In this document: positions 15,164-64,000 of the stretch, one piece after another
Numbering within the stretch: position 1 is the first letter of the stretch
Layout: the number at the start of each line of letters is the position of its first letter
Assembly (NCBI GenBank): GCA_963769025.1
Contig: CAVYKI010000003.1
Coordinates: 672,001 to 736,000, forward strand
Origin: an uncultured Verrucomicrobiae bacterium
Lineage (GTDB): Bacteria; Verrucomicrobiota; Verrucomicrobiia; Chthoniobacterales; Chthoniobacteraceae
Direction of reading: 5' to 3'
Length of the DNA: 64,000 bases
Translations under genes and position numbers: made by a program
The notes under the pieces: generated by a model
What the model saw: only the letters and a program-made list of their open reading frames with translations
Database searches by the model: none
What the model was told of the DNA's origin: nothing

Positions 15164-18100
15164 TTACACGCCTTCGCTGCGGGTGCGCCGAGTGCGCCGC
15201 CGCTCACGGTAGCCGATCAGCGCGCACAGGGCGATCGAGCCGATCAGGGCCGACGTGGCAGGTTCCGGCACCGGGACGATTTCGTACGAGCCGGCGTCGA
15301 ATTGCAGCGCGTTGTAGCCGCTGCCAAATCCGGCGAACGAGATGTCCATCTGGCCGAACGAGCTGGTGAACTCGCTGGTGAGACCGGCGAAGATGAGCCG
15401 GTCGTGAAGGCCGTCCACCCCTTCGCCGAATCCGCTCCCGTTCCAGTTGCCGCTCCAATTTTCGATCGTAAGCGTGGTGCCGCCGGTGTGCGTCCCCAAT
15501 CCCGCGAAGCTCAGGAGGCCCGCAGCCCCGGTTCCGAAATCGAGCGTGGAATTGAGGCTCAGCGTCAGCAACCCGAGGCCGACGGTCGGCGTCGCTCCGC
15601 CGGAGCCTTCGCTGGTGCCGGCGAGGCCGGTCTGCAGCTTGCCGCCATTGAGGATCACTTCGGCGACGTTGTTGATGACGTTGTTTCCGCTCAGGAGCAA
15701 TGTGCCACCGGTGTTCACCTGGATGCTTGCCGTCCCGCTGAGGCTCCCCTGGACATCCATGATGCCCGCGGCGATCACAGTCGCGCCCTTGTAGTCGCTT
15801 TGCGAAGTGACCACCATCGTCCCCGCGCCCGCCTTGGTCAGCGGTTCAAAGGGATTGGCAGCGGCGCCCGTGATCGGACTCGCGACCGTGAGCGTGGTTC
15901 CCGGGGCGGTCTCCACCGTGTTCGTCTGGGATGGCGAGAGATCCAGCGTGATGCCGCGCGTGGGCGCGATGGCCATGTCTGCCGTGGTCTGCAGCGTGCC
16001 GCCGATGAAGCGCAGCGAATCGGGACGCGGGTCGATGTGGACACGTCCGAGGCTGGTGTCCGCGGCCACGGAAAGTCTGCCCTCTTCGAGGATGGTGCCG
16101 CCCTGGTATTCGTTCACGCCGTTGAGCGTGAGCGTGTCGGCGCCCTTCTTGTAGAGGGTCACCGAGCCGTTGATCTGGCCGTCGTAGCTGCTGGGCGTGG
16201 CGGTGTTCACCGTCAGCGTCTTGACGCCAAAACCGCTGTTATTGATCGAGCCGCCGGGACCGGTGAGGCTGGCGATCTCCTGGTTGTAGCCGTTCAGATC
16301 GAGGATGCCGGACGAACCTGCACCGCGCGTATTCACGCCGGTGGTCACGGCCAGCGCGTTGTCGCGACCGATCTGGATGATGCCCGCATCCACGATGAGG
16401 TTGTTGAACGTGTTGCTGCCCGCGAGCTTGATCACGTCCTGGCCGGTCTTCGTCAGGTCAAAGTTGCCGGTGATGTTGCCATCGATCACGAGGTACGAGC
16501 CGCGCAGGCCGACGTTGCTCGGGTCGAGGTTCGTCGTCGTGTTCAGCTTGCCCATGTCGTAGAAGATGCTGTTCGCGCCGTTCGAGACGCCGGCGGGATA
16601 GATCTGGCCGAGGAAGGAATTGGCGGTCAGGTTGATCGTCACGCCTTCGCGGATCGTCTGGATGATCGCGAACTCATCGTAGTCGAGCGGCTGGTAGCCC
16701 ATGATGGAGCCGCCGGAGAGATTGATGGTGCGTGAAGACGGAGTCGTCACATCGGTGAAGATCTGCAAATGCACCCCGTCCGGCAGCGTGTAGGTGCCGG
16801 TGGAGCCGCGAGCGTCGCTCACCGCCCAGCGCTCGATGGAGCCGGCTTCCTGCTGCAAGGTCGCGGTCGGGACGAAGTTCGACACGGCGATTTCCATCGC
16901 GGCCGTCGAGCGCAGGTTCGCGGTGATGAAGCTGTTTCCGAACGCGCCATTGTGCGTCACGCGCACCGTGCCGTCGCCGACGCTGAAGGTGTGCGGGTTC
17001 AAGGCGGTGCCCGTAAAGGAGGCGCTGTTGTCGCCGAGGGTCAGGACGCCGTCGCCGCTCATGCGCACGTCGTAGAGGCCCTGGTTGTTCAGGCCGCCGA
17101 CGCCGCTGCCGGCACCGAGCTGCACGCCGCTGGTGGAGCCGGGGCCGAAGCTGGTGGCATCCACGCTGATCATGTAGTTGTCGTACAGTGTCACCGTCCC
17201 GGTGCGGATCGTGTGGCGCGAGCCGTCCGACTGGAAGAAGACGATGCCTTCATGTCCGCCGCCGGTGGTCTTCAGGTCGATGGCGGGAATCTGATCGAGC
17301 CGGTCGTTCGCGGCGACGGACCGGATCTGTCCCATGTCGTTGACGGTGATTTTGCCGCCGCTCCACGTGAAGAGGTCGGGCGTGCCGCTGTTGAACTGGT
17401 AGCGCACCTCCGCGAGCTGAACGTGTTGTCGTTGTCGGTCATGTGCGCGCCGTTGAGGATGACCTCGCCGGTGCTCGCCGCGCCGGGTGTCTGGAAGCGC
17501 AGGAGGCCGCCATTGACCACCCAGTTGCCGGTGAACTGCGGCTGGTCGGTGTCGATGCTCAGCGTGTTCGTCCCCGACTTGGTGACCTGGCTGGCGTAGA
17601 TCTTGCCGTTGATGGCCAGCGTGCCGGTCGTGACCCAGATGAGCGCCTCGCCCGTGCCGTCTCCGGCGGCTCCGAAGTAGAGATCGGGATTCAGCGTGGC
17701 CGTGAGATTGCTGCCGACCATGAGGCCGCCGCTGCGGATGGTGATCCTCCTGAACACGTTGTTCGTGCTGTTGTTGATATTCCGATCCGTGCGCAGCGCC
17801 CAGACGTCGAGATTGATGCCCAGCGTCGCGGTGGCGGATTGGAGGTTGAGGATCTCGGTGCCGTCGTTGAGCGAAAGCGTGCTGCCGGTGAGGGTGCCGC
17901 CCGACGAGGTCTTGTAGTTCGCCGGCACCGCAGAGGTCGAAGTGTCGGTGAGGATCTGGAAGCCGTACGTCGCGTCGTACTTCAGGAACTGGTTGTCATT
18001 CCGGCTCACGATCCACGGATCGACCATGTTGTTGTTCACCGGGACCTGGCCTGCGGTGGCTCCGACGCCGGAAGTCACGATGAAGTGATCCGTGTTGACC

Positions 18101-21100
18101 GTGCCGGGAACCCCGAGCAGCCCGGCATCGTGGCGGAGACTCAGCGTGCCCCACTGGCCGATGCCCGACGCGACTTTGCGGAAGATATTGCTGGTTTCCA
18201 GTTCGGCGCCGAATCCCGTGGTGCGCCGGACGGTGACTTCGGAGCCGCCGCCGACGGTGATGTCGCCGACGACTTCCCGGTTTGCCGCATGGTCGGTGTT
18301 GTCTCCGACCATGTCGATCACCGCGCTGAAGAGCGTGATCGGCGCGGTGTCCGCCCAGCGACCGCCGCCGCCGATGGTGCCGCCAGCCTGGGTGCCGGTG
18401 GTGCCGCTGCCGGTGAAGGGCGTGTTATTGTCGAAGCGCAGACGCGAGCCGCCGTGAAACACCCAGATGTTGGCGTTGGTGGTCGCGCTGTTGGCTGCGG
18501 TGCCGGAGGCGCCTTCGATGCGGACCTCTCCGAAGACATCCACCTGCCCGGTGCCCAGCGGCGTGCGGAATGTGGTCCCGGTGCTGACCGCGCCGCCCTG
18601 CAGCGACAGGGCGACCCCGCGATACCCGCCGTCGCGATGGCGGGACCGGGTGAGCAGCGTGCCACCGTCGTAGGTGTTGTTGCCGTTGGTATTGAAGGTG
18701 ATGGTGCCGTAGCCCATCACGGCATCCATCACGCCGATGATCATCTTGTTCTCGGTGCCAATGCCTCCTGCCGCGAACTGATCCGCGCCTGCCGTCGCCG
18801 GCTGAAGCGTCATCGTAGCCGTGCCGCCGCCGATCCGGAACTCGCGACCTCCCGTGCCCCAAGGCGTCACGCTGTTCGCAGTCAGGTTGCCGTTGCCGTC
18901 GCCGGAGCCGATAAACCAGTTGGCAAACACGCCGCCGTCGCGCGTCGCCATGAGCGGATCGGCCGAAAGGCTTTGGTTGTTGTCGATGCCCAGCACGCCA
19001 AAGGCCGTGCCGCTGATCACACCCGGGACTGCCAGCGCGGCGGTGATGGAATTGAAGTTGGCGATGGTGCGCGTGCCGATGACCGGGAGCGCCGTGCCGC
19101 TGGTGAAGACCTTCGTGAGGCCGGTCGTCCCGAGCTGCGAGGTGCTGCTGAGCGAAAGTGCGGACCCTGCGAAGAACTGCACCGGACCCGTGCCGAGCGT
19201 GGCGTTCGTCTGGGCCATCCGGGTGTGGCCCTGGAAGTTGTTGTAGCCGCCGGAAAACGTATTGGCCACGTTGTTGTTGAAATACATGAAGTACTGGCCG
19301 GCCTTGTTGAGGGTGCCCGTGCCGCTCACCAGTCCGTTCAGGAACAGGTCCGTGCTGTCCACGCGGAAGAACGGGCTGCCACTCACCACCACCTGGCTTT
19401 CGATGATGATGTCATCCCCGAAGCTCGCGGCCTGGAAGATGACGTAGGGGCTGTTGGTGGTGCGGAAGAAATTCCCGCTCGGCGAGCCGTTCACGCCGAT
19501 GGTGCGGTTGGCCGCGGAGGCACCGCCATTCCGATCAGTGATGAAGGTCACCTGTCCGTTCACCGAGATGTCCTGCCCGGCGGCTGTGAAGACGCTGGAG
19601 TTTCCATTCTGCGCCATGCGCACGATGCCGAAGTTCAATTCAATGTCGCCCGTGCCGCCGACGTCCGAGCCATTGACCGAAGTCACGCGCCATTCACCCG
19701 CATTCAGCGTGAAGCCGCCGGTGAAGCCGGTGTTGGTTCCGTCAAAGCGAAGCACGCCGCCGCCCGTCTTCACGATGGGCGCCGCGCTGGTGATGTTTCC
19801 CTGCAAGTTCCAAGTCGCGGTGTTGACGTTCATGCCCACGGCGCTCGTGCCGCCGATGGTCGTCGTGCCGAGCACGTTCGTGTTGGAGTTGCTGTTGTTC
19901 ATCCGGATCAGCGTGCCCGCGGGCCCGTCCGTGCCGAGGATGTTCAGGTTGTTGAACTGCACCGCCGTGGTGGTGGCGGCTCCGGTGTAGCGCTCCGCCT
20001 GGATCTGCGCGTAGGGGACATTCGCCGCGACGGTCACATCCAGGTTGAATGTCGTGGTGGTGCTGTCGTGCCGCAGGCGCAGGTCGGCAAACTGGTTGCC
20101 ATTGAAGTTATTCGCGTAGTCGGCACCGAGGATGATCGCGGTGGCCGTGCCCACCGTGCCCGCATCCATCGAGGTACAGGCGTCCGCCATTCATCTGGAT
20201 GGTGCCGGTGATGGCGTTGGCGTTATTGGTCAGTCTGGAACCCGCCGGGGCCGTCAAAGGTGAGATTCGCGGCCGTGACGACGCCGCCGAAACGGGAGTT
20301 CGGCGTGCTGTGGCCGCCAAAGACGATGCCTTCCACCGGCGTCGTGCCGTCGCCGAAGTAGATGTCCGTGGTGTTGAAGTTGACACGGTTGGAATCGTCG
20401 CTGCCGAGGATGAGGCCGCCGCTGTGGATGTTGATCTGGCCGCCGTTGAAGATCATGTCCTGCGTCCCGCTGAACTCGTCCACCCGCAGCGCATAGACAT
20501 TGTAGGTGCCGGTGAGCGTGTTGTTGCCGTTCGCCGAGGAATTGTTGGGGTTGAACTGTTCGACGGATGTGGACGTGGCCGCACCGAAGAAGGCATCGCC
20601 GCCGACAGCCGCGTTCGCCGCGAACGGCGCATTCTGATAGCCGAGGTTGATGTCGTAACTGAGGAAGTTCCGGCGTGTCTGATTGATCATCCACGGGGCC
20701 ACGATGCCGTTTGTGAGCGTGGGCGTCACCGCGTTGAAGAGCTTCATCGATTCCAGATTCACCGAACCGAGCTCGTTCGCATTCTCACGCACCGCGAGCG
20801 TGGCCTGGCCGCTGCGGACGATGTCCGCGACATTCAGGCTGATCTGGCCGTTGGTGCCGTTCCGCTCCAGGGTGATGCCCGCCCCGCTCTTGATGGTGAC
20901 GACGCCTACGGTTTCCTGGTTCGCACGACCGCTGCTGATTGATCAGGTTGAGCCCCGCGCCGTCGAGGAGGAGCGGGGTGGTGTCGCCCAGCTTATTCTC
21001 GGTGGCCTCGGTGCCGAGATTGCTCTCGTTCAGGCGCGACGTCATGAAGCTGTCATTCACGTCCATGTTGTAGTCGAGGCGCAGGTTGCCGCCGGGGCGG

Positions 21101-24100
21101 AGGTTGAGCGTGTTGACCTGCGCGCCGGAGTCATCGGTCAGGCGTCCGGCCCCGCGGAGGGTGAGGCGGCCATACACGTCGAACACGGGCGATGCGCTGT
21201 TGCCGGTGAGTTCCAGCAACCGCGGCGATCGACCCGGCATCCGCCACGCGGAAGACGGTGGTGTTGCCGGTGTAGCTCTGGTCGCCGTAGATGCGGATGC
21301 TCGCACCCGAGCCCGAGGGCGTGGCACCCGGGAAAATGGGTGCTTTTCCGAGCTCCACGGAGGCGGTCCCGGTGAGCACGTTCGAATTCACGATGGTGAG
21401 GGTGCCGGAATTGCTGCCGCTGAAGATGTAGCGGTTGTCCACGGTCGCCCCGAGGGTGTCCGCGGTGTAGAAGGTATTCGACACTGCGGAGATGCCCCAC
21501 TGGCCGGAGCCGAGCCGGGCGAGGTTGATGGGCGTGGTCCAGAGACCTTCGCTCAGCCCGAGTGCGATGGAGCCGTCCGTGAGCGAACGCAGGCCGTAAT
21601 CGGTGAGCGGCGCATCCGTGAGCAGGTCCACGCGCGTGGTCGAGCCGCGCTCCGAGCCGTAGATGCGGACTTCCTGGTTGTTCCCGGGATGGAGGACGTT
21701 CGCGGCGGTGAGGATGTTCGAAGGCGCGGTGATGCGGATCGCGGAGCCCTGGTTGACGATGATGTCGCCCGTGCCGGCGTTGGACGTCGCAGTATTCACC
21801 AGCGTGATGCCCGGGGAGCGGATGTCATCCAGCCCACGGGTGCCGAAGATGAACGTGCCACCGGTGATGACCACGCCGCCGCTCCACGTGGCGCTGTTGT
21901 CGCCGCCGATGGAAAGATCGGAGCCGCCGATTTTCGTTCAGCGTGTAGCCCTTGCCACCGTCGGTGATGGTGCCGGCGAGGACGAGCTGGCTGTCCGTCT
22001 GGATCCGGGCGTGGTTCGTCAGCGTGATCGTGCCATCGAAGCGCGGGATGAAATTGTTCGATTGGTTCGTCAGGAAGCGCTGCACGTCCAAGGTCAGGTC
22101 ATTGAAGACCAGCAGCTTGTTCTGACCGGCGCCGGTCGCGCGATCCGTGCGGAAAATGGAGTCGCCGCCCTGGTGGACGACGTTGTTGCCGATGTTGATG
22201 CGCTGCTGGTTGCTGGTGCTGTCGCCGATGGCCAGCGCCGTGAACTGGCCGCCGCGCAGCAGGATCGTGGTGGACTGCCGGGATCGGCCGAGGTGTTGGT
22301 CGTCGGCGTGGCCCACGAGTTGTCGTTCACCCACGCGGCGACGGTGCCGCGCGTGATGTCGAGCGTCTCCAGCGTGTTCGGCTTGTTGCCGTTGATGTTG
22401 CTCAGCGTGAGCGTGCCCGCGCCCGCCTTGACCAGCTTGGAACCGGCGGTGCCGAGGATCTGGCCGTTAAATTCCTGGCTGCTGTCCTCGCGGCCCACGG
22501 TGAGCGTGTTGCCGCCGAGGATCAGCGTGCCGGCGGAGAACTGGAACGAGTTGCTCGGGTTGAGCGCGGAGAGGTTGCCGAACTCCTGGTCAAAGCCGCC
22601 CAGGTCCACCGTCGTGCCCGGGGACATGATGAGGACCGAGCCGCTGGTGCCGGCCAGATTCGAGAAGAACGGCAGCACATTCGCCGCGGTGAATTTCAGC
22701 GTGCCGCGGTTGAGCTCGATGTTGCCCTGAAACTGCTGCACCGCGCCGATCTCCAGCGTGCCGGCGCCGAACTTCGTGAGGACGGTGGTCAGCGTGTTGT
22801 TGGAGTTGTTGCGGAAGTTCCGGATCGGGACGTTCAGCGAGGAGATTGCCGCGTCGTCCACGTAGAGCGAGAGGGCGGTGTCCTCGATGTTGATGCGCGA
22901 GCCCGCGGCGCCGTTAATGTCGGCGCCGTTGTTCAGGATGATGCCGCCGCCGTTGGCCGGCGTGGCGGTGTCTCCGACGAGCAGCCGGAAGCCGCCGAGA
23001 TCGATGTTGGTATCCGTGCGGAACGCGAAGACCCCGCGGTCGGCCGTGAGCGTGCCGCCAACACCGGTGGCGTCGAAGACCTGCGTGGAGCCGGCGACGG
23101 TGTCGATGTTGCCCGTCGCGCCGCCATAGGCGTACGTGCCCACGCTGGTGGCTCCGCCGGTGATGTAGTTCGCGGCGTTGTTCGTGCCGGTCGTGGTGTG
23201 GACCGCCCAGGGACCGACGATGCCGTTCACATTGGCGAGCGCGGAGGTGAAGGTGAAATTTTCCTCCGTGCCGAGCGCGCCGCGGACGGGGACAAAGCTC
23301 ACCGTGCCGGCCGCCCCGCTGCGGACGAGCGAACCGAATCGCAAAGTCGTGGTGAAGGCGTCCGCCGCGAGGTCTTCGACCCCGACGCGGGCACCGCCGG
23401 ACACCGTCAAGGCACCCGTGCTGGTGGTGGTGGAACTTGCTCCCGCCAGCCCGCGCAACTGGACCTCCGCATCGAGGATCGTCATGCCCCCCGTGCCGAA
23501 CGGGCTGCCGCTGGTCGCCTGCGCGTGGCCGATGAGGATGCCCTGCGTGACCGTGGTGAGGCCGGTGTACGTGTTGCCGGTCCCGGTGGAGGGATTGAGG
23601 ATCACGGTGCCGTTGCCCAGCTTGTTGATGTCGAAGCCGCCGCTGATCACGCCGGTGAAGGTGGTATCGCCACCGACGAAGGACGAGAGCGCCATGCCGC
23701 GCGTGGAGAGGCTCACATTGCCGCTGAAGGTCTTCGCGCCCGCGTCCAGGCCGCCGAGGGTCTGCACGTTGCCGGTGCCGGTGTTGATGAAGTTCCGGCT
23801 GATGTTGCGGACGCCCGACGCGAGGATCTCGGAGAAGACATTGTTCCGGAAGGTGACGGTCGAGGAACCCCCACCGAGAGCAGCGTCATCCCCGAGGACG
23901 ATGTAGCCGTTGGAAATCGTGACGGTGCCCAGGAATCCCGGGCTGGCCGCATTCAGAACGAGGGAACCCTCGTCATGCTTCTCGAGGGCGATCGTGCCGG
24001 CGCCGGTGATCGGGCCGGTGATGGTCGTGAGCGCTCCGCGGGTGCGCAGGCTGATGGAGCTCGTGAGCGTAAGGCTCCGGGGATTTCGATCCTGTAGCCG

Positions 24101-27100
24101 TTCGCACCGTCGAAAAACAACGCGCTGCTGCCCGAGCTTCCGACCGTGTAACCCCCGGCATGCGAGATCGTGAGATCGGGCAGGATGACGGTGACATCCT
24201 CCGAGCCCGCAGTCGTCGGGCCGACCGAGATGACGCGCGAGGACTCCGGCATTGCCACCGGTGCCGGTAGTCATCGTGGCATTGGCGATGAGTGTGCGGA
24301 CCTGCGCCATCGATGCGGAAATCGATATCGGAAATGCGGTCGCTGTTCGTGTTGAACTGCAAGCTCGATGCAGGTGAACCGGCGGCGCCGACGTGCGTGA
24401 GGACCAGGCGGCCCTGTTGCACGATGGTGTTGCCGTCATAGGTGTTGTCGGCGGTCAGGATGAGCATGCCGCCGTTCATCTTTTGCAGCGTCTGGGCACC
24501 CGTGGCCTGGTCACCGATGATGCCGTTGACGGTCACGAGGCCCCGGTCCGGGGTGTAAACATTGTCGCTCCCGATGAGGAGGGAGATGGTGTTGGCCGAG
24601 TTGGCGAAGTTGATGTTGTTGACGGCCAGGTCGGTGAAGTTGTTGCCGATGCTGAAGACTTGCAGCGTCCGGTTGGCGTCGAACGTCAGGTCGCCCATTT
24701 GCGTGGTATTGAAACCGCCGCCCCCGAGCGTCGTGGTGCGGATTGTGCCTGTGCCACCGATGACGCTCACATTCCGAGCCGCATACTGCGTGCCGACCGA
24801 GCCGCCGAAGTTCCCACCCGCCACGTCGAGCCGGAGTTCGCCCGAACGGATGGTGATGTCCGCCGTGCCGGTGCCCAGCGCCGCGTTTTCGCCGACCTGC
24901 AGGATGCCGCCGCTGCCGATGGTCACCGTGCCGGAGAAGTTTGGCTGCGCCTTCGGGATGTAGATGGTGCCGTCCGTGTAATTGCGGTCCGTATTGTCCG
25001 GAGCGCCGATGATGAGCGGGAAGGCGCCCTGGAGCACGTCGGCATTCGCGATGGTGAACACTGCGGAGTTGTTGCTGTTGCCACCGAAGCGGTAGGCCTG
25101 GACCGCACCGCCCGAGGGCGAGAGGGTCGTGCCGGTGAAGACGGCGCCGCCATTGTCCGCGCCAAACCAGACCTCGACATTCGGCGCGACCGCAAAGATC
25201 AGCCCGGGGATGTCCGCCTGGAAGTTGCGGTTGCTGCCGAGGATCACGGAGATACGGCGCGCCTGGCCGCTCTGGTTGTTGGCGATCAGGAAATTGTTCC
25301 CGCCCGTGTTGGGAATGCCCCCGGTGGCGGTGAAGCTGTTGAAGGTGATGGTCGGATTACCGAGCGCGTCCAGGCCCGTGCCGTAGCCCGGCCCGAGGTC
25401 GAGCGCCGCAGGCGTGTCGTTGCTGATGTTTTGAAGGATGACCACCTGCCGTGAGCCGATGTTGCCGGGGCCCTCGATGTAGAGGAGGCCGCCCTGGTTG
25501 ATCTGAATGTCGTTGCCCGCGACGTTTGCGCCCGCAGTGCCGGTGCCGCTCAGCCAGACTTCGCCTTCGCTGATGATGGTGCCGCCCTCGTAGCTCTTGG
25601 GCGTGTTGAAGATCAGTTCGCCACCGCCGCGCTTGACGATGCCGCCATTGGTGATGTCGCCCGAGATGATGCCCATCACCGCGCGGTTTCCGCCGGACGC
25701 GCTCCCATCGAGGCGGATGTAGCGCTGCTCTCCGCCGAGATCGAGGGCATTGACGAGCGTGGCGACATGCGTGGCGTTGCCGCCATTGAGCGTGAAGACA
25801 CCGGGATTGAACGTCGCGCTGCCCCACGTGACCGCGGAGCCCATGCCGCCGAAGTTGATGTCGATCGGCGCACCATAGGCCGAAAATCCGGACCCGGTGC
25901 CGCCGAGGAACTGCACCTGCCCGACTCCCGTGCCGAGGGCGCGCGTGAAGTGGCCGTCGTTTTCGTACGTGCTCTGGTTGATCGCCGACCCGCCGAAGGT
26001 GAGATTGCCCGAGCCGAGCGCCACGGCTTTGGAGCCGATGACCCCGCGGAACTGGCCTTCGTTGATGAACGTGGTGCCGGTGTAGCTGTTGGCGGTCACG
26101 AAGGAAGCCGTGCCGCCCCCGGTCTTGACAACCGAGACCTTGTTCAGGCCGTTATCCGTGACGTCGGAGATGATGGTGCTCGAGTTCGTGCCGATGAGAT
26201 ACAGCTCGTAACTGCTGGCCGCACCCGCGGTGAGGAAGGGCACGGAGATCGTGTGCGTGGTGTTGCCGGTCGTGATGACGCCGCCGGCGTCCACGATGAG
26301 CGTCGTCCCCGGGTCGCCACTGAGCGTGCGCGCCGTGGTGCCCGCCATGTTCAGCGACTGAACAGTGCGGTTCGCGGTGATGGTGCGGTTGCCGCTGGTG
26401 ACCTTGATGTTCTGCCCCGCTGCCCAAGTCCCCTCCGCGGTGTCGATGGCGTAGTCTGCATTGCCCAAGGTCGCATAACCAAAGCCACCCAAGGTGGTGT
26501 CATTGTACTTCAGGAATTCAGTCTGCGTGGTCGAACTGCCGAACCCGTAAGCCCAGCCGCCGACGAAGGCCACATCGCCAGTACCCTCGATGGCGGAATT
26601 GAGGATCCTGTATTGCGCTCCGGCACCGATGCCATTGGCCGCGCCACCATCGCCAGACATGCGAAGTGTAGTGCCAGCGTTGCGGGCGAAGCTGGTCAGC
26701 GTGATCGTGTGAGCAGCACCGCTCGTGGTATCCCGGAGATCGATGAGCGCGTCGCCTGACGTGAGCGTCACGGGGCCGACCACTTCATTCCAAACCGTGG
26801 TGTTGGTATTGTTGAACGCATTGTTTTCCAAGCGGATGCGCCCGGCGCTCAGGAAGATTGGAATATCGTCATCGACCTGATTCTGAAAGGCGGCCCCACC
26901 CGTCGTCTGGGTCGCGAGCATCTGCAGAAGGCCATTCTTAATCGTGATCGACGAGATGTTCTCGTAGCCGTTGACCCCGGTGGTCACGCTGGAACCCTCC
27001 GCACGAAGTTCACCCAACTCCGATAAAATCGTGCCGCTCACGGTCGACGCGGTGTTCGTGATACGAAAACCGCTGAGGCCGTAGTGGACAATGTTGCCGG

Positions 27101-28562
27101 TCCCGGTGACCACGCCGGAGAGGGAGACAAACCCGATGCCGCCCGCGCGCAGCGTATACCCTGGCGTAGCGCCCATGGAAAATGCGCCACTGAGCGTGAA
27201 CGTGCCCGTGAGGTCCGCTTGAATGCGCGCATCGTCGGCGAGGGTCACGGCACCGTTGACCGTCGTGCCGTTCGCACCCATCAGATTGCGCAGCGCGCCG
27301 TTGTTCCGGAAGCCGTTGCCGCTGATCGTGACGATCTCCGCCGGGTTGCCGATGGCGCCCGAGCCGTTCGCATCCGGTCCGAAGGCGAGCGTGCCGCCGG
27401 CAGTCACCACGGTCTCGTTGCCGGCCCCGATGGCACCGAGCACCGCGCCATCGTTGGCGAACGGCACGTCAAGGATCATGCCCCCGCTGATCGTCGTCAC
27501 GCCCGTGTAGGAACTCGTGCCGCGAAGGACCAGTGTGCCGTCGCCCGTCTTGCTCAGCCCGCCGCCACCCGAGATGTTGCCGGTGGAGACGACGAGACCC
27601 TCGGCGACATTGATGTCCCCCGAGAATGAATTCGCCCCGGAGAGCACCAGCGTCCCCGTTCCGAGCTTGGTGAGACCGCCGGTGTTCGTGCTGTCGATGA
27701 TGCCGAACATTTCCACATTCTGGCCGTTCGTATCGAGTTTGATGGATGCGGCGCTGTTCTTGATGACCGGCGAGTAGTCCGTCCCCGTGGCGCTGTCCGC
27801 CGTGTACTGCAGCGTGCCGCCGCCGAAGGTAATGACGCCCACGGTTCCCAAGGCGTCCGCGCTGCCTGCACGCAGGATGCCGGCGTTGATGAAAGTGTCG
27901 CCCAGGTAAGTCGCCATCCCGCCGAGCACCAGATTACCCGCGCCCGACTTCGTGAGCGACCAGAAATTGCCACCGTCATCGATATCCGAAAGCACCGTGA
28001 GCGTCTTGCCCGCGGCGACATTCCAGTCGTTGTTCCCGCCGAGGAGGACAGAACCCCCGAGCCCGCTCCGGATGGTCGCCGACTCGTTTGCGATGATGCC
28101 GGTGTTCAGCGTGAGGCTGTACGTGTCCGTGAAAATCGTGTAGGTCCCGCTGTTCGGCGTATTGAACGTGAGACTGCCCGCGGTGACGGCCGACCCGAGC
28201 GCCACGGTGCGGGCGATGCCCGAGGTGCCGCCACCGAAGATCGCGTCGTCGGGAGTGGCGTTGTTCCATGTCGTATCGCCGGCGCCCGTGTTCCAGTTTC
28301 CGATGCCGTTGGCCCAGATCTGATACTGGTTGGTGGTGAAACCGAGATTGCCGTCCTGAACTGCGGCACCGTCCCCGGTGAGAACATCCCATATCAGCGA
28401 AGCCCCCCGGGCCGGCGCGACCGTGGTCGCCAGCATGACAGAAGCCGCGAGCAGCGCCGCGGAGCCCGCAAGGATGCGACTGCAAACCGGCTTGCGAGAT
28501 TCGAACGCCGGCTGCTTTTTGTGTTTGCGGCTCGTGCGGAGGTTGAGGCGGTTTGCTTTCAT
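15164..28562 (-). CDS. Giant surface protein 1 (~4,460 aa): autotransporter-associated beta-strand (passenger) repeats plus PEP-CTERM; ~10 frameshifts
   Basis: Start MKANRLNLRTSRKHKK..ILAGSAALLAASVMLATTVAPARG (long signal peptide); many LTKxGxGTLxLxGxNxYxGxTxxxxGxL repeats; G/T/N/A-rich. The frame continues across junctions at ~24290, 24245, 24080, 22285, 21935, 21225, 20940, 20235, 20165 and 17415. Ends VPEPATSALIGSIALCALIGYRERRR. Confidence 0.85.
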
Positions 28563-31301: not shown

Positions 31302-31320
31302 GGGTTTAACACCATTTGCC

Positions 31321-54100: not shown

Positions 54101-57100
54101 AGCTGGCTGTTCGCGCTGACGAGCACCGTGCCGCCCGTGATCGCGAGCGTGCCGAAGCTGTTGTTGCCCTGGAGCACCAGGTCGCCGAAGCCGATCTTCG
54201 TGAAGCCCGCTCCCGCGATGTTGCTGCCGGGGGCCTGGGTGAGCGTCTTGCCATCACCCACGTCGAATCCGCTCCCGGTCGAGGTCAGAGCGGTGACGTC
54301 ATTGGTCAGCGTGTAGTCGAAATCCCACACGCCGAGCAAACCGCCGTTCAGCATGATGTGGGAGGTCGCGGGGAGCGCGCCCACCGTGCCCACCACGAGC
54401 GTGCCCTGGTTGATCTGCGTGAAGCCGGTGTAGGTATTCGTGCCGCGCAGGCCGAGCGCGCTCAGTGCCGGTCTTGATCAGGCTGTTGAAGCTCGTGCCG
54501 ACCCCGTCGGTGATGTTGCCGGTGATGATTGCACGGGCGTTGACGTTGTTGACCGTGATCGTGCGCGCCGAGCCCTGTGCGGTGCCGAAGGCGCTGCTCG
54601 AAAGGCTGACATTGCCGGCGAGGAAGATGTTGACGCCGTTCGTGTCGATGATCGCGTCACCGAGGAAGGTGACGTCGTTGGCGAGCGTGATGTTGGGCGC
54701 GAGCCTGGGCAGGCCCAGATTTCCATTCGCGCGCAGCGTGCCGCCGTTGAACGTGATCGTGCCGGTGCCGAGCGCGCCGCTGTTGCCCAGTTCTACGAGC
54801 TGGCCGAGATTGATCGTCGAGCCGCCGGTGAAGCTGTTCGGGGTGTTCAGGAGCACCGTGCCGCCGCCGAGCGTGACCGCGACGGACTGCGCCTGGATCG
54901 TGTTGCTCACGACGCCGAACTGGACGCTGGCCGTGCCGGTGAGCACCGGGGAATTGATCGAGAACGAGCCGCCGCCGCCGCCGATGCGGTAGGTGTTGCC
55001 CGCCCCCACGCCGAGCGTGGTGGCCGTGTACGCCGAGAGGGCCTGGTTCGAGAGGCCGCCGCCGAGGAAGCTGTTTCCGTTGGTCGTGAGGGTGGCCTGG
55101 TTGAGCGCGGTGCTGAAGCCGGTGACATCGATCGCGACCACGCCGTCGTAGGTCGGATCGGAACTCACAAAAGTGACCGCGGGCAGCGCGCCGACATACT
55201 GCATGTTCAGCACGCCCGCACCGGCCTGATCGCTGTTGATGGTGAGACCGCCGCCGACGTTGGCCGCGTTGCTGATGCCGATGGCCGCGCCCGGGCTCAC
55301 CGTGATGGTGCCCGTGCCGAACGGCGTCTGGGCCAGCCCGTTGAGCGAAACCAGAGCGCCCTGGTTGACGGTGACCGCCGCGCTGTAGGCGGGAGAGTCG
55401 CCGCCGATGCTCAGCGTGCCCAGGCCCCACTTCTGCAACGCTCCCACGCCGGAGACCCCGCCGAGAATGGTCATGTTGCTGTTGGTCGCTGTCTCCGTGT
55501 TGATCGAAACCGGACCGTTGAACGTGGCGCTGCCGTAGTTGACAAAGGCGTTGTTCGTCACGCGAACGACCACCGGGGTGTTGAACGTGTTGTTCGCGTA
55601 AGGATTGACCGTCAGCTGATTGTAATAGGAGCTGTTGCCGCCCACGTTCGAATCCGCGTTCACCACCACGGTGCTCAGATAACGGGCCTGCCCCTCAGAG
55701 TACATCTGGCCGCCATTGAGGATGATTTGGTTCCCGTTGATGTAGGGGTTCACCGTGCTGCCGCCCAGTGCGTACTGGTTGTTCAGGCGGAACCAGTTCA
55801 GGCCGCTGACGGTCACATCGCCGGTGAGCGTGCCGCGGTTGTCGGCGTCGAGCCGCATGTCACCGGCGCCAAACTTCGTGATGCCGGTGGCCGTGATGGG
55901 ACCGGTAAAGTTCGTCGTGCTGGCGGTGTTGGGATTGTAGATGACGAGTTCACCCGCCGTTGCGATGGGCGTGGTGAAGGTCTTGGCACCGGAGCCATTG
56001 GTGACGATCAAGCCGCCGCTGACAATCGTGAGCACATGGCTCGGTGTGAGGGTCACGCTCCCCTGAGTCAGCGACGCCTGGTTGGACATCGTGATCGTGG
56101 AGGCACCGAGGGCGGTAATCACCGCACCTGCCGGGATGCCGGTGCCGGTGATGGGCTGGCCGACGCGGAGCGTGGCGATGTTGGCCCCGCTGACACCCGT
56201 GATGATATTGGAGCCCTGCGTGCTGGCACCCGTGACAGTCGCGGCGTTGCCCGTGGTGATGGCCGAGTCGGTGCGCAGCGCGTACACGCTTTGACTGGCG
56301 GTGAGCGCCTGGGTGACGCCGACGATGTCCACTGTGGCCACGCCGGTGGTCAGGCCCGTGAACGTGTTGGCGGTCGTCAGGCGGTTGCTGTAGGCCACCT
56401 GCCCGGCGCCCGGCGTGGCGATGCTGAGGAGCGGCTGGAGACCGAGCGTGCCGCCCTGGTTGCTGAGGAAGGTGAGATTCGTGCCGTCCACCATCCACAC
56501 CGGGGCGATGCCGCCGGTGGCACCTGCGCCGTTGTTGGTCGTGCCGGCGTTCGCGCCAAAGGTCGGAGTCGTCACGAGCAGGCGATCAAAGGCGGCGGCG
56601 CCGTTGAGGCTGCCCTGCGCTGTCATCACGCCCGCCGCGATCGTGGCGGCGGCGGCGCTGGTGACCGTGAGCGTGCCCTTCTGCGAGCCGCGGACGATGT
56701 CCGAGACCTCGAGGACATTCGTACCCGAATTCTGGCGGCTCAACTGGATCGTGCCGTTGTTGAGGCCGACGGTGACCGCGCCGATTTTCTCGTAGGTGTC
56801 CTGGTTGTTCGTGCCGACAAGGTTGAAAGTGCCGCCGTCGAGCGTGACGCCCGTTGCATCGGCCCAGCGGCCCTGGGTGCCCGAGCCGGCGAAGACGCCG
56901 GAGTTGTTGTCCAGACGGATCACGCCGAGGTTGCGCAGGACGTAGGTGTTGGCATTTCCCAGGGCGGGAACGTTGTACGCCGAACCGTCGCCACCGCGGA
57001 AGATGAGCACGCCGCTGTTACGGATTTCCACCACGCCCGAGCCGAGCGGCGTCGCTCCGCCAGGTCCGGGCGCTCCGCCGGTTTCCACGACGAGGGTGCT

Positions 57101-60100
57101 GCCACGGTTGATGAGCGTGCCGGCGCTGTAGCTGTTCGAGTTCTGGATGACCACCGTGCCCGTGGAGTTCAGGGGAGCCACGAGGCCGAGGGTGACCGTA
57201 GGGATGGAGCTGCCGATCTCGACCGAGTTCGCACCGGAGAGCACGTTGTCCGAGCCCGCGAAGGTGAGGGCCACGTTGCTGGCGCTGTTGGCACCGAGGC
57301 GGTAGCGGCTGCCGTTGCCGGCGGTGAGGCTGCTGGCGAGGTACTGCACGCCGGCGGTGCCAAGGCTCGCGCCGTAGGCGCCGAGGAACTGGTTGCCGTC
57401 GCCGATCTGCGTCATGTCGAGCGCCGTCGTGAAGGTCGGGATGCCGATCTGCACCGTGCCGCCGAAGGCGTCATTCTGCGTGGTCGCAGTCAGCGCGCCG
57501 GTGCCATTGGTCGGGCTGAAGTCGCCATCGAGCACCAGTGCGCCGAAGCCGGCCGTGCTGCTGAGGATGTTCACGCCGGCTGCACCCGTGGTGCTCGACG
57601 AGGCCGCGATGCGCAGGTAGCCGCCCGGATTCACGATGACCATGCCGGTGCCCATCGGCGTGCCGGTGGTGCCCGTCACCTGGACGGCGCCGCCGGTGAA
57701 GATGTTCGTGCCGCCCGTGTAGGTGTTCGCAGTGCCCGTGATGCGCACGGTGCCGGTGCCAGTCTTGTTGATGGCAAAGGCCACACTGCCGGTGTCCTGG
57801 ATCACCCCGGAAAGCTCGACGACCGAGCGCCCGGCAAGGGCCGCAGCGGTGGTGACGTTGAAGACCGCTGCATTGCCGCCGGTGACCGTGCCCGCGAAGC
57901 GGATGTTCTGGCTGTCCGTGGACGGCGTCGAGGTAAAGACGGTGTTGCCCACCGTGAGATTGCCGAACTGGAAGTATTGATCCAGGAAGCCGGTGCCGCC
58001 GATGCCGCCGTTGTTGTCGGTCACGATCGAGGTGCTGGTGCCGTTGACGATGACGCTCAGGCCGATGGTGTTCGGATTGCCGATGATCGTGGCCAGTCCG
58101 GGGCCGACGCCGCCGGCGAACAACTGGAGGTTGCCCCCCTGCAGTTCCAAGGTGGTGGGCGTTCCGGAAGCGTATCCGCCCAAGGCGGAGGGCGTATTGA
58201 GCAACACATTGCCCGACCGCAGCACAAAGCCGCCGGTGAAGGTGTTGAGATTGGACTGCGGGTTGCTGCCGCCGCTGTTATGGCTGCCGTTGAGCTGCAA
58301 GGTGCCGGTGCCGCCCTTGATGACGCGGACCGTGCCGGCGCCATCCTGGATGGTTCCGTTGAAGACCGAGTTGTTGGTCGCCTCGACGATGAGCGTTCCC
58401 GCCGTGGCATTGGTATTGGTGATGATGCCCGCCGATCCGGTGAGGCGCACCGACCTTCACGTTCGTCCCGTTCAGGTCGAGCGTGCCGGCGTCGTTGAGG
58501 ACGATGTTATGCGAAGCCGGCTGTGCGGTCGCACCGCTGAACTGCACGGCGCCGGACTGCACGGCGAGACCGCCGCTGATGCGGTTGCTGCCGCTGAAGA
58601 GCAGGGTGCCGGGGCCAAACTTGGTGAAGCTGTTCGCGACCACGCTGCCGCTGAGAGTGGGCGTGCCGCTGGTGAAGCCGGTGCTGGTGTACACCACGCC
58701 TTCGCCATAGTTCAGGCCATTGAGCTGGGTGGCGCCGTTGTTCACAAAGCCGAAGAACAGGTCGGAACTGATCACCGGGGCCGCGCCGCCCGCGCCGTTG
58801 ATGAGGATGCCTCCGAGCTGGACCTGGTTGCCGGTCGAGCCGTTCGCCACAATTCGCAGGACTCCGCCGGAGACGTTGGCCGTGGTCTTGAAGGCGTAGA
58901 TGCTGTTCGTGCCCGTGAGAACCTGGGGGGTGGTGATGTTGCCGACCGCAGTGGGCGCAAGCGCGGAAAGGGTCGTGACCGGCGTCGTCGGCGCGCCGGT
59001 GAGGAAGCCGTTCGTCGTGTTGTAGGTCACGAAGTCCGCATCGCTGTTCGGCGCACCGTCCGCGAGGCGGACGATGACCGGGGAGACGATGCCGTTGAAA
59101 TTCGAGGAGGCCACAGCCACGCCCAGAAGCTGCGTCGTCGCGAGCAGCCGCGCACGCTGGCCGGCGGTCGCACCAAGATTGGCCGTGGGCTGGATGACCA
59201 TCGTGCCCTGGTTCGTGCGCTGGATGTTGCCGAAGGTGAACTGGTCGTTGAAGGCAACGCTGTTGTTGATGTCAAAGATGCCGCCACCATTGATGTTCAG
59301 CGTGCCGGTGTTGCCCGTCGCGTAGTCCGCCACGCCGGCATTCGTGATGCGGATGGTGCCGCCGTTGAGCGTCGTGGTGCTGTTGGTGCCGAGCGGGGCG
59401 GCCCCGGCGGTCTGCAGGACCTCGATGACGCCCGCATTGGCGCTCCATGGCGTCGCCGCGGCGTTCGTCACCGTGAGCTGGAGAGTGCCGGCCCCGACCT
59501 TGTGGAGCACGCCCGTGCCCGCCGCCGCGACCGTGCTGGTGACCGTCTTGTTGGCCGCGACCTCGATGGCGCCCGTCGTGCTCATCGTGATGACCCGGTT
59601 CAGGTTCGCGATGTTTTCCGTGAAGCGCAGCATCGGCGTGCCGCCGGTGCCGTAGTTGGCGCTCGCGTTGATTGAAGACAATGGCCCCGGGCGTCGCAGT
59701 GTTGCCGAGCTGGTTGTTGCGCAGAGGCGCTCACCACACCGCTCATGATGGTCAGGCCCGCAAAGCTGTTGTCGCCCTGCAGGACCAAGGTGCCCGAACC
59801 GATTTTCTGCAGAGCTGCCCGCGCCCTGCCAGATGCTGCTGCCATCCTGGGTGAGGATGCGGCCCTCGGCCACGTCCACGTTGCTGGTGGCGAGGAAATT
59901 GAGGTTCTTGTTCAGCGTGAACGACGCCTCCCACGCGCTGAGCGTGCCGCCATTCATGTTCACGTACGGATTCGTGCCGAGCTGGTTGCCGTCCGTGATG
60001 GCGATGTTGCCCGCGTTGATCAGCGTGATGCCCGTGTAGGTGTTCGCATTCGTCAGGCGCAAGGCGCCCACGCCGACCTTGACCAGGCCATTGTAGGCGC

Positions 60101-63100
60101 TCGCGCCATCGCTGATGACGCCGGAAAAGGTGACGATGCCGCCCTGCGCCTGGGCGTAGGGCGCTTGTGTTCACCGTGATGGTGCGCATCGAGCCGCCCA
60201 CCGCGCTGTTCGAGAGACCGACCGCGCCGCTGAAGGTAAGGTCGCCCGCCGTGCCGTTGAAGGCGCTGTTGAAAATCACGTCTCCCGCAAAGCTGATGGC
60301 ATTCGTGACCGTGCGGCCGCCAGCAAAGCCATGGAGGCGCTGCATTGCGTCGCTCTGGATCGTGCCGCCGTTGAAGATCACGGTCGCTGGCGCCAAAGGC
60401 ATTGGCATTCCCGATCTGGACAGTCTGGCCCTGGTTGATGAAGACGTTGCTGGTCGCGTCGAGGTTGTTCGACTGGTTGAGGACCACGGTGCCGCCGCCG
60501 TTGACCATGCCCACGGACGCGCCCTGGATGCTGTTGTTGATGGCGCCAAACTGCACCGTCATGCCGGAGCCGCTGAGTTGGTTGGCCCATTCATGTTCAG
60601 CACGCCGCCGCCGCCGCCGATGCGATAGACGCCGCTGCTGTCCGTGAGCGTGCCGGTGAAATTCGCAGCCCCGCTGGCCGTCACGCCGGTGCCCGCATTG
60701 ATGCCCGCGGAACTTCCGAGGAAGCTGGTGCCGCTGCCGATGGTGCCCTGATTGATCGCGGTGTCAAAGCCGAGCACATCCACGGCGATGACGCCGTTGA
60801 ACGGGCCACCGTTGGTGCCGTTGTTGAACGTGATGGCCGGGAGCGCGCCGCTGTACGCGAGGCCGACGACACCGAGTCCGGTGAGGTCGCTGTTCACCGT
60901 GAGACCGCCGGTGACGGTGTTGGTCGGATGCGCGAGACGGACGGTCCCGCCCGGGTTCACCGTGACGAGCCCGGAGCCGAACGGAGTGTCTCCGAGGCTG
61001 CCCGCGGTGGAGACGAGGATGCCCTGGTTGACGACGGTGCCGCCGCTGTAGTTGTTCTGCGCGACGGTGGCCGCGGCGCCCGCGCCATTGGTGAGCACCA
61101 AGGTGCCAGGGCCCCATTTCTGGATGGCGCCCGCGCCGGTGACCTGACCTTGGAGGAAGGTGGCGTTCACACCGCTGGTGGTCGTGAGGAGATTGAAGGC
61201 GGCACTCTGATTCAGGGTGACCGTGCCCGTGTAGACCTGGCCGCCGGTGAGGGTCAGCACGGTCGGATCGGGAGCGCCGCCGGTCCGCGCGGCAAACGTG
61301 AGGCTGCCGAAACGGGGAAGCGTCGGCGTCGTGTTGGAAAGGATCGCCGAATCATTGATCACCGTGATTGCGCTGAGGAAATTGCCCGCGGCGGCCGTCG
61401 ATGGGCTGACGTCGAGGGTGCCGCCCGCAAGGCGGATGGCGGGCGCGTCCACCACATACGGCGTGGTGGTGGCCGCGGTGGTGTTTGCGCCGAGGCGGAC
61501 ACCGAGGGCGTTCGGCGTGGCGAACCGCAGCGAACCCTGGTTGATGGTCACAGTCCCCGTCAGCAGCGGAGTCGCGGCGACGGTGCCGCGGCTGTCGCCC
61601 GTGAGCGAAAGGGTGCTCGTGCCCGCCTTGGTCAGCCCCGTGGCGTTGATGCTGCCGGAGAGAATCTCCACGAACGCGCCGCCGTGGGAGTCCCAGATCA
61701 TCGCCTCACGGTTGCCGGCGGTGCCGAAAATCCAGTTGTTCGTGTGGGTGCGGTCGGCTGTCAGTGTGCCCGTAAAAATCAACCCGGCTGGATCGCCCAC
61801 GGGGGCGCTGGCGCCGATGGTGATGGCTCCGGTGCCGGTGAGTCCAAAGTCGCCGTTGACCCGAAGGGCGAGCGCATTGCTGCCGACGATGGCGGCGGTG
61901 GCGGTCTGGTTGACGGTGTTCGCAGCCGTCGAGGTCAGGATGTTCGTGGAGGCGTAGGTGATCGGAGTCACACCGCCAGTGGCATTGTAGCCGACAAAGG
62001 TGGTCGCACCGGTGTGATCCACCAACCACGCCGGGAGCAGCGCCGGCGTGCCGATGGCGCCGCCGTTCAGATTGGTGATCATGAAGCGCGTATCCGTCGC
62101 GCCCATGGTGCCGCCGGTGGTCACGAAGCCGAGCGAGCCCGCGTTGGAGCGGTTCAGGTCGGTGAGGTTGATGCGCGCATTGTCCGTGGCGGCTACGCCG
62201 CGGGAGATTTCGATGAGGTTGCCGCCCTCGAAGTTGATCGTCGCGAGATTCTGGATCGTCGTCTGCGCGGCCGTCGTGGAGCCGAGGAAGCGGAAGTTGC
62301 CGCTGCTGAGATTCAGCGCGGTCGTGCCGGCCAGGCGGGGCTGGGTGGCGCTGGTCGTGTACGCGTTGTTGTTCAGCACCAGGCCGACATTCTGCCCGAC
62401 TGCATTCGTGAACGCGGTGTTCATGATGTTCACCGGGTTCGTGAACGTCTGCTGCGGCAGCGTTGCGGCGACATTGTAGGCACCGCTGAAGAGCAGCTGG
62501 CCAAACAGATTCACCTGGCTGCCCTGCGGGATGTAATCCTGGACGTCCGCCGTGCTGGTGATCTGAAGCGTGCTGGCGCCGCCCGCGAAGCGGTTCACGG
62601 TGGTGGAGCCGGTGTAGTTGTTGCCGGTGCCGCTCAGGGTCACGGTGCCGTTCATGCCGCCCGTTGCTCCGACGATGTTCGATACCGTGTGGCCGATGAT
62701 GATGCCGTTCGTGATTCCGTTGGCGAAGGTCAGGTCGCTGGAGATCGTCATCACCGTGCCCGCGGCATTGTTGGTGCCGAGCCGCAGGATGCCATCCGTA
62801 TCCGCGGAGATCGCGCCGCTGTAGGTGGCCGTGGCGCCGGCGCCCAGCCAGAACCGGCCGTTGCCGGCGGCGTGATTGCCGAGCTGGCTCATGTCCACCG
62901 CGTTGGTGATCGAGCCTTGGTTGGTGCGCAAGGCGGCACCGATCACGGGGCTGGTATAGATGCCATTGGCCGAGGTGCCGATCGCGAAGTTCGCACCCAG
63001 TTCGAGCACGCCGGGCGCATTGCCCGCCGTGGTGGTGCTGGTCGGCCCGGTCGGGCCCTGGGAAACATTTACGACACTCCCCACCGTGGACTGGATGGCG

Positions 63101-64000
63101 ATCTGCGAGGGGCCGGTGAGGTTGCTCGTGTCGCTGATCCGCAGAATCGCATTCGGAGCGATGTAAACCGCACCCGATCCCATGGTCGCGCCGGTGCCGC
63201 CGGCAAAGTTCAACTGGAGCACGCCGGCGAAGACATTCGTGCCGCCGGAGTAGTCGTTGGCGGTGGCGGAGGTGTTCGCGAGGACGAGCGTCGCGCCGCC
63301 GACCTTGTTCAGCGCACCCGTGCCCGTGATCTTGCCTCCCGTGGCGCTGCCCACGTTCACAGTCGGAGTTCCGTTGCTGATGGTCGAGACTGCGCCGGCG
63401 AGATTCAGGTCGCCGGAGAGCAGGAGACCGAAGCCGTTCGCCGCCGTGACCAGGAGCGTGTCGTTATTCAGCGTGAGCGGGCCGCTGATCGTGTGCGTCT
63501 GGTTCGAGCCACCGCCACCGATGGCGCGATCCACGTTGATGATGGAGTTGCCGCGGATTTCGAAGGTGTTTGCCACCGTCAGCGCGGTGTCGTTGAGGAT
63601 ATCGAACTGCGCGCCCGTGTTCAGCGTGATCGTGCCGGAAGTCCCCGCGGCGGCAGAGCTAAGGCTGACGGCCAGACGGCCCGCGTTGATCGTGACGCCG
63701 CCGTCGAAGGTGTTCACCCCGGACAACTGCACGAAGCCCGCGCCGTCCTTGGTGATGCCCCTCGTGAAAATCCCGTCGTCGATGACCCCGGTGATGTTGA
63801 TCCCCTGCCCCGCAAGCGCGTTGTTGATGACGAGGTTGCTGTTGAGCGTGACGCCGGTGGAGATGGTGTCCATGCCCGCGAGACTCGTGATGTTGAGACC
63901 GCCGTGGTTCTTGAACAGCAGCGCCGAGCCGCTGCTGACATCAAAAGTCAGCGAGCCGCCGCCCGCCGCGAGCGTGTAAACGCTGGAGCCCAGCGCATCG
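36172..64000 (-). CDS. Giant surface protein 2 (>9,200 aa, 5' end outside the window): passenger-associated beta-strand repeats plus PEP-CTERM; ~14 frameshifts
   Basis: Frame open to base 64000. Continuous G/T/N/A-rich repeat protein across junctions at ~60580, 60390, 60150-60165, 59805, 59720, 59675, 58450, 54460, 48875, 42045, 41880, 41805, 41720 and 41390. No internal signal peptide or tail seen. Ends VPEPATTALIGAVALCALIGYRERRR. Confidence 0.82.
48900..64000 (-). repeat. Protein-level tandem super-repeat, period ~5.5-5.65 kb, about 3 units
   Basis: Marker motifs recur at near-constant offsets: TPFG.G..V.PG at ~60980/55320/49815; TKFGPGTLL at ~58620/53055; G(T/A)(P/T)(M/L)G.G at ~63185/57660/52090. 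Confidence 0.8.

Follow-up and report, generated by a model that had tools for sequence, protein, structure and literature searches.

We analysed a 64,000-nucleotide stretch of DNA (the window; G000:C3:672001-736000) from the genome of an uncultured Verrucomicrobiae bacterium, here G000 (5.34 Mb, 13 contigs, 83% complete). Its named homologues indicate Chthoniobacteraceae. Positions 15164-64000 of the window hold genes for two giant surface proteins, a kinase and a response regulator, and a pilin-like protein of the Verru_Chthon cassette type, VccA. These five genes cover 97.8% of that region, in line with the five-gene layout that a first-pass annotation of the DNA had described. The same annotation proposed one dedicated two-component system; it is not single, because a second kinase–regulator pair, HK2–RR2, adjoins giant 2 directly upstream. 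The locus thus consists of two tandem kinase–regulator–giant units and a lone vccA gene, and is a real, partly conserved surface island built from catalogued families. Its features are as follows, in window coordinates.

15164..28562, minus strand: giant 1, a PATR/PEP-CTERM surface protein of 4,461 residues (13,399 nt), reading through 9 frameshifts; 13 PATR matches
28835..28947, minus strand: copy 1 of a 113-bp upstream element, facing giant 1; 17-bp palindrome at 28895-28911
29314..29997, minus strand: RR1, a NarL/LuxR-family response regulator of 227 residues; 49% identity to RR2
29994..31151, minus strand: HK1, a membrane HisKA_3 sensor kinase of 385 residues, divergent from vccA; 35% identity to HK2
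31163..31275, plus strand: second copy of the 113-bp element, oriented towards vccA, with its palindrome at 31199-31215
31321..36000, plus strand: vccA, Verru_Chthon cassette protein A (TIGR02600), 1,559 residues, unbroken; K-type prepilin start
36172..64000 within the window, start at 64332, minus strand: giant 2, a PATR/PEP-CTERM surface protein of 9,381 residues (28,161 nt), reading through 13 frameshifts; 35 PATR matches
64535-64551, outside the window, same contig and strand as giant 2: palindromic box of giant 2, followed by 12 nt and a promoter-like site, TTGCCA-N17-CTTAAT
64671-65342, outside the window, same contig and strand as giant 2: RR2, NarL/LuxR-type, 223 residues
65320-66372, outside the window, same contig and strand as giant 2: HK2, 350 residues, which with RR2 forms the second NarL-type pair, directly before giant 2

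The start of giant 2 lies 332 bases past the window end. No vccB, vccC or vccD gene is present in the window.

Architecture and integrity of the giants

Both giants carry PATR repeats, counted with a purpose-built profile. Neither has an autotransporter barrel (PF03797), as the first-pass annotation had stated. The five PF03797 matches of the genome all lie elsewhere than in the giants, and no partner barrel gene was found at the locus. Gly, Ala, Thr, Ser, Asn and Val make up 59-65% of either protein, with nearly no cysteine. The PATR repeats suggest a beta-helix fold; by the usual geometry of such folds, the giants would form beta-helical rods about 100 and 200 nm long. With about 9,400 residues, giant 2 ranks among the larger surface proteins predicted in the group. 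A still longer PATR-containing open frame, of 12,731 codons, was seen in another genome of the phylum (G102:C16).

Each giant starts with a long basic leader containing a LAGS motif and ends with a conserved domain and a PEP-CTERM tail. The extended leader (28400-28562; L001:6180-6332) is common to giants on contigs C9, C10 and C12 and in relatives, and consists of a Lys/Arg-rich stretch, an (I/A/L)L(A/S/C)G(S/T) motif and a signal-peptide helix; it is possibly a targeting feature akin to the extended signal peptides of autotransporters. The conserved domain, of 130 residues, stands just before the PEP-CTERM tail (15272-15700 and 36280-36750) and belongs to no Pfam family; a search with the stretch that holds it found 100 homologues. 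A second type is found in the C9 giant and in giants of G007, G016 and G022. The C-terminal PEP motif, transmembrane helix and basic tail are present in both window proteins. The tail of giant 2 scores above the cut-offs of PF07589 (22.4 versus 20.7) and TIGR02595 (16.7-20.9 versus 16). That of giant 1 falls below the PF07589 cut-off (16.8 versus 20.7) and is unlisted for TIGR02595, but 23 of its 26 residues are identical to the giant 2 tail. The earlier claim that both giants end in PEP-CTERM therefore holds by score for giant 2 and by likeness to it for giant 1. The genome contains at least eight large PATR/PEP-CTERM genes, and no vcc neighbour was seen for most of them. When a piece of giant 1 was searched against 29 other genomes of the genus, nothing matched at an E value of 1e-20 or better.

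Contrary to the first-pass description, the giants are not single open reading frames. Long minus-strand frames tile 15164-28562 and the region from 36172 to past the window end, the frame changing repeatedly; giant 1 needs nine frame changes and giant 2 needs 13, with an X read at each break. The read-through path of the two genes, 13,842 codons in all, contains no in-frame stop and keeps the leader and tail of each giant. Across the genome, 1,898 frame changes were called with a frame-aware gene model; 1,779 of them were strong (30 nt or more from the upstream stop), or 3.3 per 10 kb, and 1,414 of the strong calls were +1. The roughly 1,800 likely indel frameshifts of the assembly are clumped (1-51 per 50 kb). 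In an independent control, 88 open reading frames from relatives were searched against the genome, yielding 62 homologous loci (88.5 kb), 13 of which contained a total of 30 frameshifts. The giants have 18 model-called frame changes; segments of equal size have a median of 12, and 33 of the 121 segments score as high as the giants. Because the break rate matches the genome-wide rate, the breaks in the giants are most likely assembly errors, and we infer that both genes are intact in the genome. An alternative genetic code was ruled out, the breaks being frame changes and not in-frame stops. Programmed or slippery frameshifting was rejected as well: the called sites showed no enrichment in homopolymer runs and no strong motif. 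Any other finding on G000 that depends on split genes or on frameshifting needs to be weighed against the frameshift rate of the assembly.

VccA, a predicted giant tip pilin, and its relatives

The vccA product is a full member of TIGR02600 (785.3 bits, cut-off 332.3, model positions 2-1296); its sequence has no Pfam match and no PDB sequence match at E values up to 1. It begins as a prepilin, with a hydrophobic helix, an alanine at position -1 (as in 12 of the 27 prepilin-like starts of the genome) and no glutamate at +5, and it has one transmembrane segment. The gene is under purifying selection (pN 0.21-0.28 versus pS 0.66-0.78).

The fold was approached through a full-length homologue of 1,150 residues from G025, modelled from 49 sequences (pLDDT 69.6, pTM 0.76). 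Over residues 39-1150, this model matches GspK (3ci0_K: Z 11.0, rmsd 3.4, 254 of 280 residues) and XcpX (5vtm_X: Z 11.0, rmsd 3.2, 230 of 259 residues); the next row has a Z of 5.5, and ComZ 5.3. A Foldseek search of the PDB returned nothing at E 0.001 or better for this model or for that of the window protein. The homologue model shows a GspK fold with its C-terminal strand in cis, features carried to the window VccA by homology, since the two proteins align at both ends (33% and 44% identity). The model of the window VccA contains a large beta-sandwich insert, which matched beta-sandwich rows only, all below Z 5. VccA is thus predicted, on the model of its homologue, to be a giant GspK-like pilin that caps the fibre tip, which agrees with the earlier proposal of a subunit of a type II secretion or type IV pilus-like machine. 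The best outside matches of VccB are XpsI and PilV, that of VccD is GspH, and one cassette of the genome is ordered D-B-C-A, like gspH-I-J-K. Because the VccA homologue model matches GspK/XcpX, the cassette would be a GspH-I-J-K-like tip set.

I–J heterodimers recognize the K subunit, whose last strand either comes from PilY1 in trans or is supplied in cis; in several fibres that lack a separate tip adhesin, K carries a large insert (PMC13533445). By its model, VccA fits the cis type of K subunit, and a lone vccA would therefore be workable with VccB and VccC from elsewhere. With a C-terminal strand of its own and a large variable insert, VccA most likely acts as an alternative tip that brings its own surface for binding, rather than as an adaptor for the two giants. 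The window protein shares 59% identity with the copy encoded on contig C9, but residues 701-900 share just 28-33 per 100.

The first-pass annotation called vccA solitary. This is true locally; the genome as a whole has six vccA-like genes, of which the window copy and one more stand alone, and genes of the B, C and D families are present at the loci C9:590k, C3:955k and C3:43k. Five lone vccA genes (including G000:C9:862325-866314; also L041, L042, L043 and L045) form a clade apart, with no vccB, vccC, vccD or giant in the flanks examined. A tree of 41 rows places the window vccA with genes from G004, G014, G012 and G015 and not with the copy in the vccB-C-A (B-C-A) cassette on C9, which belongs to the same B-C-A lineage but is not its sister. 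Forcing a clade of the window and C9 copies was rejected (delta lnL 246, p-AU 5e-6; 16 rows, 2,000 replicates). In the four relatives, an intact giant of 4,000-6,400 residues runs divergently from vccB-C-A, and vccB and vccC occupy the place that HK1–RR1 hold in the window. The giants beside these closest VccA relatives match each other at 45-88% over 2,000-4,900 residues. The best local matches between them and the window giants reach 30-38% over about 200-370 residues, and the tail differs; by these comparisons, the window giants are a different family.

Adjacency of vccA to giants, defined as a PATR gene of at least 1,000 residues within 5 kb, was scored at 24 of 44 vccA loci, 20 having been dropped for short flanks, a rule that favours positives. 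Nine of the 24 adjoin a giant: eight of 14 B-C-A loci, none of six complete B-C-A-D loci and one of four lone vccA genes. At one of the dropped B-C-A loci, in G003, about 18 kb of upstream DNA contains no giant. Since the eight giant-adjoining B-C-A loci fall in two clades, the association counts as a pattern rather than a test. Among 120 other genomes of the phylum, 61 have PATR proteins, counted with or without a barrel, and none has TIGR02600, with at most four candidates scored per genome. These data are compatible with a looser association of giants with D-less cassettes.

Several further observations concern the cassettes. Those of the B-C-A lineage (six relatives and C9; G000:C9:580702-592278, L015:5672-9810) are followed by an Agl23/PMT-like GT-C gene (TIGR03663) and a gene for an unannotated membrane protein of 800 residues, a hint that the pilins or giants may be glycosylated. 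A D-B-C-A-A' cassette at G000:C3:36593-44732 contains two short vccA paralogues in tandem and lies near a LEPR-XLL-type giant. The GC3 of vccB-C-A is 0.55-0.63, compared with about 0.85 around it, in G014 (C11:70030-74826) and G004 (C46:33917-38680); this difference suggests transfer of the cassette from genome to genome.

Recurrence and control of the kinase–regulator–giant unit

Homologues of HK1 are found in eight of the 29 other genus genomes and orthologues of RR2, at 68-73% identity, in three (G014, G004 and G005). At G014:C18 and G004:C139, a kinase and a regulator stand beside an intact PATR/PEP-CTERM gene (7,337 and 7,317 residues) in the order seen here, and both giants carry the same tail as giant 2; the G005 contig stops 230 bp past the regulator. 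No vccA gene was present in the fetched flanks of any of the 12 relative kinase loci. Pattern scans of genome and metagenome contigs yielded two short vccA loci and three weak kinase loci, none of them informative.

The common upstream element of giant 1 and vccA noted at first pass is confirmed. The gaps before the two genes share 113 bp without a gap (73 identities), scoring 33 against a shuffle maximum of 14 (n=100). Each copy faces its gene, and the pair contains two exact runs of 11 bp. The copies flank HK1–RR1 as inverted repeats, as those of an invertible element would, but they are only 65% alike, and no recombinase was seen. Giant 2 does not have the block (score 11, reached by 57 of 100 shuffles), and no third copy was present among the blastn matches listed. 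The window had no Rfam match that would mark the element as an RNA, and the GG-N10-GC spacing of a -24/-12 box was not seen in it by eye.

Each copy of the element contains a 17-bp palindrome that also precedes giant 2. The palindrome followed by 12 nt and TTG(C/T)(C/A) recurs before giant 2, three relatives' units, the C10 giant and HK1. A box matrix was built from eight sites, one of which had been picked from the wrong place (score 10.2) and adds noise; when trained without the site of the C12 giant, it ranked that site joint second among intergenic sites (18.0). By matrix score, the palindromic box marks a subset of the giants. Together, the 113-bp block and the palindromic box support co-regulation of the giants and vccA at the level of sequence, which is how far the earlier notion of a co-regulated module is borne out. 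RR1 and RR2 may bind the candidate box, and VccA likely shares the regulation of the giants; a dedicated exporter for the giants it probably is not.

Proposed export and display of the giants and role of VccA

The genes expected for sorting and export are present in the genome, as the first-pass annotation had anticipated, all of them outside the window: exosortase, secretins, ATPases and prepilin peptidase are absent from it. Three exosortase candidates match TIGR04178, one of which, 38 kb past the window, also exceeds the TIGR02602 cut-off; the exosortase Cys, Arg and His are present by eye. Secretin matches above cut-off occur at three loci, one of them GspD-like and beside a GspE/PilB ATPase. 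The genome further holds 11 ATPase matches and one prepilin peptidase. GlyGly-CTERM and MYXO-CTERM proteins require type II secretion (T2SS) to arrive at the surface (10.1101/2023.06.07.544157).

We consider with moderate confidence that the locus is a co-regulated surface island in which VccA is an alternative fibre cap using VccB and VccC in trans. Each NarL-type pair would likely switch on its giant PATR protein. The giants would be exported by Sec, have their PEP-CTERM tails cut by exosortase and probably be moved outward via a secretin-based machine, while VccA would assemble as a GspK-like cap with VccB and VccC encoded elsewhere in the genome.

A number of results weigh against this reading. 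The GspK match was not obtained on the window protein itself, whose model covers residues 361-1559 (pLDDT 78.7), lacks the first 360 and has a best match of Z 4.7. In the gap between HK1 and vccA, the giant-2-type geometry (palindrome, 12 nt, TTGCCA) faces HK1 and not vccA, and a sigma-70 scan of this gap found no site. Twelve of 14 other upstream regions of giants and vcc genes, including all four vcc regions, score within the null range, C12 being clearly above it and C10 borderline. Because the top hit of the box matrix lies before dnaA and other strong hits before unrelated genes, the box may bind a global regulator rather than RR1 or RR2; the sites, labelled by eye, are G000:C3:1255372 (dnaA), C10:191807 and 191837 (an efflux-type adaptor gene) and C3:933669 (acyltransferase-like). 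No giant was seen in the DNA examined at ten of the 12 relative kinase loci (the G005 contig ends early), and two other NarL pairs of the genome likewise lack one. HK1 and RR1 have no clear orthologue (best 46-52%), and the arrangement with a lone vccA was seen in G000 only. The GspD-like secretin is under the TIGR02517 cut-off (292 versus 351), and no paper showing T2SS export of a PEP-CTERM protein was among the search results listed. Some other giants in the same assembly are unbroken across 14-18 kb. Finally, a public DNA run (X1, share 0.07), aligned to 20001-40000 and 41001-61000, gave short pieces at 99-100%, and none of those listed spans a break site.

The competing explanation that fares best, though we regard it as rather unlikely, is that VccA is a hitchhiker, the leftover of an incoming giant/vccB-C-A block that has lost vccB, vccC and its own giant and that now works or drifts independently, the kinase–regulator pairs controlling only the giants and themselves. 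It would account for the position of the window vccA in the tree, apart from the C9 copy, for HK1–RR1 standing where the relatives have vccB and vccC, for conserved units without vccA in the fetched flanks and for the promoter geometry facing HK1. It sits poorly with the gene-facing 113-bp block and its two exact runs, and with a 4.7-kb vccA that is unbroken and under purifying selection.

Autotransporter passengers cross the outer membrane unfolded, and a folded rod of 9,400 residues would be an extreme T2SS substrate. The giants could accordingly stay in the periplasm or take another outer-membrane route, Bam/Tam-assisted or two-partner-like, with type IV filaments uninvolved in display. PATR, which is located in the beta-helix, helps the secretion of autotransporter passengers (PMC9977779), and PEP-CTERM proteins of Akkermansia are more abundant in the intracellular than in the outer-membrane fraction (PMC4960237), both of which would suit such a route. 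Neither giant has a barrel and the locus encodes no partner barrel, whereas the other CTERM classes named above use T2SS; we judge this option unlikely.

More doubtful is the first-pass proposal of a cargo-specific VccA, a tip subunit that would bind these giants and select them for export or hold them on the pilus tip. Type IVb tip pilins that bind secreted partners, TcpB and CofB, offer a precedent. The predicted GspK-type place at the fibre tip, the shared upstream element and the frequent location of D-less B-C-A cassettes beside PATR giants, in two separate clades and in contrast to all six complete cassettes scored, are compatible with it. Yet the window giants are not orthologues of the giants beside the closest VccA relatives, the kinase–regulator–giant unit recurs in relatives with no vccA in the fetched flanks, and most large PATR/PEP-CTERM genes of the genome have no vcc neighbour. 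Three of four lone vccA loci lack a giant, as do most vccA loci counted, and the phylum-wide distributions of PATR and TIGR02600 diverge. In addition, VccA appears to have its own terminal strand and would therefore need none from a giant. That the giants are decaying pseudogenes and the island non-functional is very improbable: their 22 frame breaks in 41.6 kb, set beside the unbroken giants of the same assembly, speak for it, but conserved genes break at the same rate, the breaks are clumped and mostly +1, and the frames are free of stops from preserved leaders to preserved tails.

The reading of VccA as an alternative cap could be extended to a switchable export-and-display system in Chthoniobacteraceae, which we hold to be distinctly improbable. 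One secretin machine and shared VccB–VccC dimers would accept interchangeable giant GspK caps, and a NarL pair would switch on a cap together with the 100-200 nm PEP-CTERM rod that the cap selects or carries. If true, this would provide an outer-membrane route for PEP-CTERM proteins, with substrate choice by tip-pilin swapping.

Comparison with known systems places each part. The Verru_Chthon cassette comprises A-D (TIGR02600, TIGR02598, TIGR02599 and TIGR02596). The window protein is a full member of its A family, with B, C and D encoded elsewhere in the genome; the locus differs in its lack of B, C and D, in having a two-component pair where relatives have vccB-vccC and in the presence of a second, non-sister copy of the B-C-A lineage. 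Like GspK–GspI–GspJ (3ci0) and XcpVWX (5vtm), the VccA homologue model has a core formed from both chain ends, matches nearly all of GspK/XcpX and has its own C-terminal strand, and VccA lacks a Glu at +5. In contrast to GspK/XcpX, VccA proteins have 1,150-1,700 residues rather than about 300, carry a beta-sandwich insert with no match above Z 5, show no sequence-level match and occur as several paralogous caps per genome, away from the machinery genes. The PEP-CTERM/exosortase system with PrsK–PrsR shares the PEP-transmembrane-basic signal, the exosortase, long upstream gaps with a common motif and two-component control (Haft et al. 2006, PMC1569441). PrsK–PrsR, described for Proteobacteria, is a sigma-54 pair with an NtrC-type regulator (PMC1569441), whereas here a NarL/LuxR regulator and a HisKA_3 kinase lie beside targets of 4,500-9,400 residues.

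Type Va autotransporter passengers with PATR (PF12951/TIGR02601) resemble the giants in repeats, composition, near absence of cysteine and long leader; the giants differ in having the conserved 130-residue domain and the PEP-CTERM tail and no C-terminal barrel. GlyGly-CTERM/rhombosortase and MYXO-CTERM combine a C-terminal sorting signal, an intramembrane protease and a secretin machine, as in the route proposed here, but with another signal and enzyme and with a T2SS step that is shown there and conjectural for the giants (10.1101/2023.06.07.544157).

Literature searches on the Verru_Chthon cassette name, the TIGR numbers, PEP-CTERM giants in Verrucomicrobia and GspK with Verrucomicrobia found no paper in the library searched; supplements and the TIGR02600 curators' comment may note a link to large repeat proteins. 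The locus alone does not show a new secretion system, because every part is a catalogued family and the lone-vccA arrangement comes from one error-rich assembly. For an abundant soil lineage, it bears on two questions, the route of PEP-CTERM proteins across the outer membrane and the function of Verru_Chthon cassettes. It offers three handles: a conserved kinase–regulator–giant unit with a candidate operator, a protein of about 9,400 residues, and a pattern of giants beside D-less B-C-A cassettes but not beside complete ones.

Beyond giant 1, on the same strand (11062-15029, minus), lie a DUF4838 glycosidase-like gene and a DUF6020 membrane gene, the latter in a stretch of lower GC content.

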